Positions 15,561 to 16,517 of a DNA stretch of 64,000 bases are shown one piece after another; the first letter of the stretch is position 1, and every line of letters begins with the position of its first letter. A model generated the notes under the pieces. The model was not told the origin of the DNA, did not search any database, and saw only the letters and a list, made by a program, of their open reading frames with translations. A program made the translations under genes and the position numbers. Source of the DNA: Alphaproteobacteria bacterium (lineage in GTDB: Bacteria; Pseudomonadota; Alphaproteobacteria; JBMOFM01); NCBI GenBank assembly GCA_049318825.1, contig JBMOFM010000013.1, positions 21,847-85,846 on the forward strand, given 5' to 3'.

Positions 15561-16517
15561 TTAACGAAAAGCTAACCGAGAAATTTGAGCTGTGGAAGCC
15601 GTTTTTGTAGCAGGAGCATTGGGTATGGTTGAAACTGGGGTGGGTTCTATTGATGGCTTGTTTCCAAGGAAATATTGATCAACCTCATTTAATGTAAGCG
15701 TGCCTTCCATATAAGCAAGAATTTGCGCTGAATAATAGAGTTTCGCTTCCACGGCTGGTGCATTTGTTAGCGCGCCACTATCAAACATTTTATTTCTATA
15801 TTCTATATCGCTATTAATATCGGGTTGCATATATAAAGACCGATAGTGATCAAATAATTCGGCTGTAAAAATAGGGTCTCTCACCTCGGTTAAGCAATCC
15901 CAACGCTCTTGCGCCATGGCCAGCTGTTCAGCCCCAGCTTCTCCCATTTTTTTTAATTTACGAATTTCTATAAATAAATCGCCAATTGTTTCAGCTAAGT
16001 AGTCAAGACATTTTTTATCAACATTGGTACATGCATAATCAAGGTTTTCTCGATATCGGTGCACCATATTTTTGAAAGAAGCAAAATCAGCAATACATTC
16101 TTGTTCAAACATCGCGGCGCGCAATTTTTCGGGGTCATGATCCCAATTGCTAGGATTTGATTGCCACTCTAAATCGCCATGAACCACATGACCATTAATC
16201 TCATGGATTGCTCCTCTGGCAAATAGGAGAAGAACGGAAGAATTAAAGATTGAATCAGCACCTTGATCGAGCATCAATTTGTGTGGTGTCATCATCCAGA
16301 TGGGTTGTTTTTCTCCTTTTAGAGATTCAAAACCCCTGATGGCTTGATGAGTGGCTGCGTTTTCCGCCATGGCAATTAACAGATTTTTTTCCCTAATGAA
16401 TTCCAGCATCTCTCTGCCATCTTCAGTGGCACCAATAACGGCAAAAACCGCTGCTATCCATCCAAGATGCTCTGGTTTATCTGTTTCACCTAATGGATCA
16501 AAAAATAAAGACACCAA
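15561..16517 (-). CDS. hypothetical protein, novel family with HE(I/L)xGH motif (paralogue of 61175-62140)
   Basis: 318 aa. It aligns with the 61175-62140 product over N-terminal and central regions (GETDKPEHLGWIA... versus GDSDKQAHLEWMR...; AIHEINGHVVHGDLEW versus LIHELKGHHEHKHDLW). No known family recognised. Confidence 0.45.
   Translation of the reverse strand: MVSLFFDPLGETDKPEHLGWIAAVFAVIGATEDGREMLEFIREKNLLIAMAENAATHQAIRGFESLKGEKQPIWMMTPHKLMLDQGADSIFNSSVLLLFARGAIHEINGHVVHGDLEWQSNPSNWDHDPEKLRAAMFEQECIADFASFKNMVHRYRENLDYACTNVDKKCLDYLAETIGDLFIEIRKLKKMGEAGAEQLAMAQERWDCLTEVRDPIFTAELFDHYRSLYMQPDINSDIEYRNKMFDSGALTNAPAVEAKLYYSAQILAYMEGTLTLNEVDQYFLGNKPSIEPTPVSTIPNAPATKTASTAQISRLAFR

Follow-up and report, generated by a model that had tools for sequence, protein, structure and literature searches.

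The 64,000-nucleotide stretch of DNA analyzed here (the window) spans positions 21,847 to 85,846 of contig JBMOFM010000013.1, from an assembly labeled Alphaproteobacteria bacterium (GCA_049318825.1). It carries two minus-strand open reading frames (ORFs), P1 and P2, whose predicted products of 318 and 321 amino acids (aa) share an N-terminal block, a hexapeptide of the form HExxGH and a downstream ExxADF motif. The initial annotation, made from the letters of the sequence, had reported both ORFs. They are present as described, and all peptide blocks quoted for them were found in place when the DNA coordinates were checked. The two genes and their conserved elements are as follows; residue numbers are those of the respective protein.

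15561..16517, minus strand: ORF P1, 318 aa when read from TTG 16517; exact match to a protein of the metagenome-assembled genome (MAG), NCBI MFZ4762756.1, ACOYK8_08080
16458..16508, minus strand: N-terminal block of P1, LFFDPLGETDKPEHLGW, with D7, G10, D13, K14, H17, and W20 invariant in a four-way alignment
16188..16205, minus strand: HEINGH of P1 (H105, E106, G109, H110); H, E, G, and H invariant in four of four family members
16083..16100, minus strand: ECIADF of P1 (E140, A143, D144, F145); E, A, D, and F invariant in four of four
61175..62140, minus strand: ORF P2, 321 aa; exact match to NCBI MFZ4762794.1, ACOYK8_08275
62087..62137, minus strand: N-terminal block of P2, LPIDWHGDSDKQAHLEW, from the four-way alignment, coordinates checked
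61814..61831, minus strand: HELKGH of P2 (H104, E105, G108, H109), at the end of predicted helix 91-110
61709..61726, minus strand: EAEADF of P2 (E139, A142, D143, F144), within predicted helix 128-156

The start of P1 is ambiguous (16512-16517). The ORF listing begins at TTG 16517, whereas the NCBI gene model begins one codon later at the adjacent GTG 16514, yielding 317 aa. The GTG is probably the true start, since M-SLFFDPLG gives the better fit to M-LPxDWxG, with which the other copies begin.

As judged by alignment, P1 and P2 are true paralogues, and their similarity is far above chance. BLASTP matched residues 4-310 of P1 to residues 2-312 of P2, nearly full length, at 23% identity and E=6e-18. 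The Smith-Waterman local score was 183, compared to 35 ± 5 for 500 shuffled sequences (z=28.9), so the resemblance claimed for the pair withstood comparison with a shuffled background. Exactly two copies were detected in the window by tblastn. The C-termini had been described as divergent. This applies to the last ~30 residues but not to the rest of the C-terminal halves, where the MPEF..LLW..Y, IN.D, and GK.Y blocks align.

Family size and distribution

Two further members of the family, P0003 (318 aa, E=3e-34) and P0004 (315 aa, E=4e-32), referred to below as P3 and P4, emerged when 1.84 billion protein representatives were searched exhaustively with a HMMER profile. A further hit, P0005 (699 aa, E=4e-4), was excluded: it is a repetitive Ala/Glu-rich protein that matches the variable helical region only. 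All six pairwise BLASTP comparisons among the four members were significant, with E values from 1e-11 to 6e-51 and identities of 21 to 33%. The four proteins are encoded in a single NCBI MAG, deposited as "Alphaproteobacteria bacterium." ACOYK8_04540 and ACOYK8_04815 are located on a 123-kb contig, and ACOYK8_08080 and ACOYK8_08275 on the 86-kb contig that holds the window.

Outside this genome, no relatives were recovered. The 90%-identity clusters of the four members, drawn from ~15 billion sequences, hold one sequence each. When P1 and P2 were compared by word index with 5.8 billion protein clusters, nothing but the queries themselves came back, and the word-index search that used the four-sequence profile yielded no sequence outside the family. 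There were also no relatives in 185,579 GTDB species genomes, in JGI metagenomes, or in IMG/VR viral contigs. The family hidden Markov model (HMM) matched none of the ORFs in 80 UvrD-syntenic loci from related bacteria. When 241 million metagenome DNA records were scanned for the two motifs at a fixed spacing, 12 chance matches emerged, all unrelated and each scoring less than 8 bits against the family HMM. The members also lack a match to any known family in Pfam, NCBIfam, PHROGs, PADLOC, and PDB sequences, and for P1 and P2 this bears out the earlier impression that neither contains a recognizable domain.

Multicopy orphans of this kind had been described as rapidly diverging. Identities of 21 to 33% among copies within one genome instead point to old duplications in a lineage that has been poorly sampled. 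The best relatives of the UvrD protein encoded in the window are only 50 to 54% identical to it (Micavibrio, Hypericibacter, Kiloniella, Paracaedibacteraceae, and further MAGs), which is why we consider the lineage unsampled. The orphan status of the family is largely a reflection of this.

Conserved motifs and a candidate gluzincin-type site

The four-way alignment contains 31 invariant columns, grouped in three places: the N-terminal block, HExxGH, and ExxADF. The most conserved 15-column block of the family is the N-terminal one, which begins at residue 2. The two motifs account for 8 of the 31 columns (H, E, G, H and E, A, D, F). The first reads HEINGH, HELKGH, HEILGH, and HELEGH in the four members, and the second reads QECIAD, FEAEAD, FEARAD, and AEAKAD, with 29, 29, 29, and 26 residues separating the second His from the Glu. 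In a set of 9,294 ORFs, taken from ~1.5 Mb of DNA of varied bacterial origin, HE..GH occurred in nine, and its combination with E..A[DE] 20 to 55 residues further on occurred in the four members only. The His/Glu-rich block, proposed earlier as a metal-binding or hydrolase site, thus remains the most plausible site in these proteins, given that the H, E, G, and H and the downstream E, A, D, and F do not vary.

The members are acidic (pI 4.95 to 5.8) and hydrophilic, 315 to 321 aa long, and devoid of an N-terminal hydrophobic segment. They are probably cytoplasmic, without a Sec signal peptide.

Structure was predicted with AlphaFold2 (AF2). A first run with two sequences only gave a predicted local distance difference test score (pLDDT) of 42 and was unusable. 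With the four-sequence alignment, the model of P2 (ma5f3b8211e5e) reached a pLDDT of 67.6 and a predicted template modeling score (pTM) of 0.71, and its confident segments coincide with the conserved blocks. Its elements comprise helices 12-26 and 30-41, short strands 46-49 and 72-74, helix 91-110 with HELKGH at its end, and helix 128-156 with E139. In both AF2 models, the two motifs are placed on consecutive long helices that follow two N-terminal helices and two short strands.

In gluzincin peptidases, the thermolysin-like MA(E) zincins that include M4, M13, M48, and M56/BlaR1, the His pair of HEXXH binds zinc and the Glu serves as the general base. An EXXXD motif follows 20 to 60 residues downstream, its Glu being the third ligand and its Asp forming a carboxylate-His-zinc triad (PMC3356374). 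The Glu ligand lies three residues ahead of the Ser/Gly-turn residue, which is most often Ala (PMC6414381). At the sequence level, the family resembles this arrangement closely: its E-x-x-A-D is invariant and lies 26 to 29 residues past the second His, within the 20-to-60 range, and the Ala at Glu+3 is invariant at what would be the Ser/Gly-turn position. The predicted order of elements is likewise in agreement with that described for gluzincins, in which strands and a backing helix precede the active-site helix and then the glutamate helix.

On this model, H105 and H110 of HExxGH on the active-site helix would bind the metal, mononuclear zinc or another divalent metal, jointly with E140 of ExxADF on the next, glutamate helix (P1 numbering throughout). 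E106 would act as the general base on a metal-bound water. D144 would orient a His ligand to form a carboxylate-His-metal triad, and A143 would occupy the Ser/Gly-turn position. Because the invariant residues fit a gluzincin site one-to-one and the helix order agrees, a soluble metal-dependent hydrolase, likely a peptidase, is the reading that we favor. Stated in full, our proposal is that P1 to P4 are soluble hydrolases that depend on zinc, of the gluzincin type and probably peptidases, and that they form a new family restricted to one lineage; we give it nearly, though not quite, an even chance. Metal binding, catalysis, substrate class, and localization are all properties that we infer.

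The same residues could be arranged differently. The invariant residues of ligand type number eight and are distributed among the N-terminal block and the two motif helices, and the predicted structure is largely alpha-helical, as would suit a mostly helical dinuclear (Fe/Mn) carboxylate-histidine enzyme, such as an oxidase/oxygenase or a phosphohydrolase, whose ligands would be H17, H105, H110, E106, E140, D144, and perhaps D7 and D13. An Mn-importer operon contains one of the copies (see below), and P2 showed weak, subthreshold matches to HD-domain 5'-deoxynucleotidase models. However, these matches fall at residues 170-218, off the invariant motifs, in one member only, and far under the cutoffs. 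Foldseek returned no ferritin-like, heme-oxygenase-like, or HD fold, and a gluzincin site accounts for the motif pair and its spacing completely, residue by residue. A dinuclear enzyme is therefore improbable in our estimation.

Gene neighborhoods

The features surrounding P1 and P2, together with two further loci in the window, are the following.

14741..15544, plus strand: divergent M48/HtpX-like peptidase gene (PF01435, 2e-11), listed earlier as an HExxH protein
20588..22446, plus strand: candidate two-gene anti-phage system inserted between uvrD and prmA; an AAA_15/AAA_21 ATPase (PADLOC PDC-M38A, 5e-94; also AbiLi-like) and a DUF3226/TOPRIM protein (PADLOC PDC-M38B, 8e-43)
25488..30200, plus strand: gene (GC content, 0.40) for a 1,570-aa protein with an N-terminal soluble M48-like domain (HEIFH ... 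EEYGAD); no Pfam family matches the other ~1,350 residues
60224..61114, plus strand: YfdX family gene (27.4 bits; cutoff, 26.6) with an N-terminal signal-like hydrophobic segment
61134..61166, minus strand: terminator-like hairpin of P2, a 14-bp stem with a T-rich tail, 9 nt past the P2 stop codon
62174..62203, minus strand: promoter-like site upstream of P2, TTGCCA and TATATT with an 18-nt spacer; 10 of 12 consensus positions, a consensus match only
62243..64000, plus strand: RNB-domain (RNase R/II) gene (PF00773, 1e-99), which runs past the right end of the window

P1 follows mlaA-mlaC on the same strand. The 80-bp gap between mlaC and P1 contains no promoter-like or terminator-like site. 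On its other side, P1 converges with the M48/HtpX-like gene, their stop codons being 16 bp apart. A flagellar cluster is located further upstream of P1. P2 is situated between the YfdX-family gene and the divergent RNB-domain gene. The promoter-like site and the terminator-like hairpin that flank it suggest that P2 is monocistronic. Two neighbors, the gene at 14741 and that at 60224, had been taken for orphans. The former encodes an M48/HtpX-like peptidase and the latter, noted as secreted, belongs to the YfdX family and does have a signal-like hydrophobic segment at its N terminus. Both copies had further been placed in AT-rich patches. The AT excess is only modest, as the gene GC content is 0.40 for P1 and 0.396 for P2, where the window averages 0.438. 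Upstream of the paralogues, GCAAT..ATTGC was considered as a palindromic operator common to them but was dropped, with seven matches in the window compared to 4.2 expected. Elsewhere in the window, the gene pair at 20588..22446 has the lowest gene GC content (0.36); uvrD and prmA are adjacent in several related genomes.

On the other contig, P3 adjoins two small ORFs without a known family. P4 is located between the ATPase gene and two ABC-3 permease genes of a cluster-9-type (ZnuA/MntC-type) metal ABC importer that consists of a substrate-binding protein, the ATPase, and the two permeases (locus L002, positions 5713-11134). An MntR equivalog (196.8 bits; cutoff, 153) is encoded beside it. Judged from the overlap of the P4 stop codon with the permease start (ATGA, L002 9380-9383), P4 is translationally coupled with the downstream permease gene. 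The 72-bp spacer between the ATPase gene and P4 holds a promoter-like site (L002 8372-8400) and no terminator-like site.

This operon context raises a rival explanation, in which the members are noncatalytic metal-handling proteins, for instance cytoplasmic metallochaperones, buffers, or sensors for Mn/Zn/Fe homeostasis, and the His/Glu/Asp cluster binds metal without hydrolysis. The position of P4 among importer genes beside an MntR equivalog, its ATGA overlap, and the missing terminator-like site after the ATPase gene all suit such a role, as do the His-rich compositions of P2 and P4 (17 and 15 His, with extra His straight after the motif) and a number of invariant ligand-type residues that exceeds the need of a mono-zinc site. 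Yet the extra His residues are not conserved across the family, and the other three copies have no metal-related neighbors, with P1 following mlaA-mlaC, P2 lying between yfdX and the RNB gene, and P3 next to small ORFs. P4 itself may simply be an operon insertion, given that it has its own promoter-like site. Moreover, the invariant set includes residues that serve in gluzincins as catalytic or second-shell residues and not as ligands, namely, Glu in HExx(G)H and Asp in ExxxD. We regard a purely metal-handling role as unlikely.

The initial annotation had likened the paralogues to secreted effectors of host-associated alphaproteobacteria. A secreted or translocated effector of a host- or prey-associated bacterium is a reading of role that is compatible with a zincin mechanism. 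Consistent with it, four divergent copies exist in one genome with none found elsewhere, their gene GC content is at the low end for the window, three copies have independent promoter-like sites, and the divergent, low-confidence C-terminal tails of ~30 residues are rich in small and basic residues. The window also encodes the 1,570-aa protein in which an M48-like domain is the sole recognizable one, and some of the closest UvrD relatives are from Micavibrio and Paracaedibacteraceae MAGs. However, no member has a signal peptide, and the block of strongest conservation begins at residue 2, unlike in N-terminal secretion signals, which are poorly conserved. As for secretion systems, the examined DNA contains only flagellar genes and none for type III, type IV, or type VI systems, and one copy resides within a housekeeping Mn/Zn transporter operon. 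UvrD is at most 54% identical to any relative, and the free-living Kiloniella and Hypericibacter score equal to predators and symbionts and share more local synteny. An effector role appears doubtful to us, to about the same degree as pure metal handling.

A last alternative is that the genes are not functional, being either ORFs that arose by chance or pseudogenes in decay within AT-rich spacers. In its favor, one could cite the lack of homologues beyond one MAG and the slightly low gene GC content. Against this, all four ORFs are intact and full length (315 to 321 aa), colinear at 21 to 33% identity, and conserved in discrete blocks. Additionally, the AF2 model reached its pTM of 0.71, promoter-like and terminator-like signals are placed around P2, and P4 is coupled to its downstream gene. 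Since conservation holds between such divergent copies, the nonfunctional explanation is effectively refuted.

Comparison with known metallopeptidases

Several observations weigh against a gluzincin-type hydrolase. The family hexapeptide has one extra residue between the His ligands compared to HEXXH, and the invariant potential ligands D7, D13, and H17 go beyond what a mono-zinc site needs. The family profile was built on just four sequences from a single genome. Pfam scans at E≤10 returned nothing relevant and no link to a peptidase family, with no match for any member to Peptidase_M49 (PF03571), the profile that represents the five conserved sequence regions of M49, and PDB-sequence profile searches with full-length and core alignments revealed no metallopeptidase. 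An hhalign comparison of the family with the motif region of human DPP3, a member of M49, aligned 10 columns, the motif only, with a probability of 2.3%; the comparator comprised residues 446-521, a fragment 100% identical to PDB 3fvy. In a second hhalign comparison, with an alignment of the two M48-like proteins of the window, the probability was 0.2% and the motifs were not aligned. Foldseek searches of the P2 model against PDB and BFVD gave a best E value of 0.76 at a template modeling score of ~0.1, noise that included glutathione S-transferases and BAR domains. No metallopeptidase was among the top 50 matches, so that a canonical zincin fold, in which a beta-sheet and the backing, active-site, and glutamate helices surround a cleft, is unconfirmed. 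The lack of a fold match lowers our confidence in the hydrolase reading.

Two other results of the PDB-sequence searches should be mentioned. Family residues 11-76 (P1 16290-16487) matched PDB 5llt, the nicotinate-nucleotide/NaMN adenylyltransferase of Plasmodium falciparum, with an E value that weakened from 0.0015 with two sequences to 0.015 with four; this match is probably compositional, though that does not fully explain it. A core-only profile (residues ~37-160) retrieved CyanoQ alone, at E=1.3.

Assignment of gluzincin status from motifs when BLAST shows nothing has precedents in BlaR1 L3 and FP0506 (PMC6414381, PMC3356374). Beyond the gluzincin-type assignment, we put forward a more specific and more tentative proposition, which we think likelier to fail than to hold in all its parts. 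In it, the family is a new one of metallohydrolases, with an HExxGH site on a ~320-aa scaffold unlike solved structures that is either independent of M49 or diverged from it unrecognizably. The four members would be old paralogues in a deep-branching, unsampled lineage, and one copy would have been recruited to an MntR-linked Mn/Zn importer operon. If this is true, zincin peptidases gain a new family and, with it, a new test case for how a gluzincin metal site can be built, and the recruited copy would connect the physiology of metal starvation with a novel fold for peptidase action or metal binding. The operon context of P4 suggests a testable idea, that of a hydrolase or metal-handling protein induced by metal starvation. 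At present, the practical impact remains limited, as the family is represented by one MAG from an organism that is uncultured and motifs are the sole basis for all that is said of its function.

Among known families, M48 (HtpX/Ste24/BepA) shares with P1 to P4 an ExxAD-type third-ligand motif, exemplified in the window by the giant M48-like protein with its HEIFH ... EEYGAD at a spacing of ~33. No family member matches PF01435, and a phmmer search of the M48-like neighbor against PDB for comparator sequences yielded nothing useful. The M48-like gene adjoining P1 is convergent with it, and hence there is no operon link.

The closest likeness of the hexapeptide is to M49 (MEROPS M49; PF03571). 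For M49 dipeptidyl peptidase III (DPP III), which releases N-terminal dipeptides in a zinc-dependent manner, HEXXGH has been called "unique" and a hallmark; both of its His residues bind zinc there (PMC5667867, PMC5805324), and a second motif, EEXR(K)AE(D), supplies the Glu ligand 22 to 55 residues downstream (PMC5667867). None of the four family members has the initial Glu of EEXR(K)AE(D), and its R/K is present in two of four. The family proteins measure 315 to 321 aa, in contrast to the ~550 to 740 aa of the two-lobed, two-domain M49 enzymes, and no DPP III chain appeared in the PDB profile searches at E≤10 or in the Foldseek PDB top 50. From the sequences, the likeness to M49 is one of motif and not of membership. 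At that level, all four members carry HExxGH, their second-motif Glu at 26 to 29 residues falls inside the published range of 22 to 55, and two of the paralogues, with xEARAD and xEAKAD, come near to EEXR(K)AE(D). If our proposition holds, a hexapeptide regarded as the hallmark of M49 also occurs on a much smaller, unrelated-looking scaffold. The likeness extends to the outcome of structure searches, in which neither finds a similar fold outside its own family. Because DPP III has no fold neighbors outside its own family (PMC5667867), a zinc peptidase on a noncanonical fold, as we suggest for P1 to P4, has a precedent.

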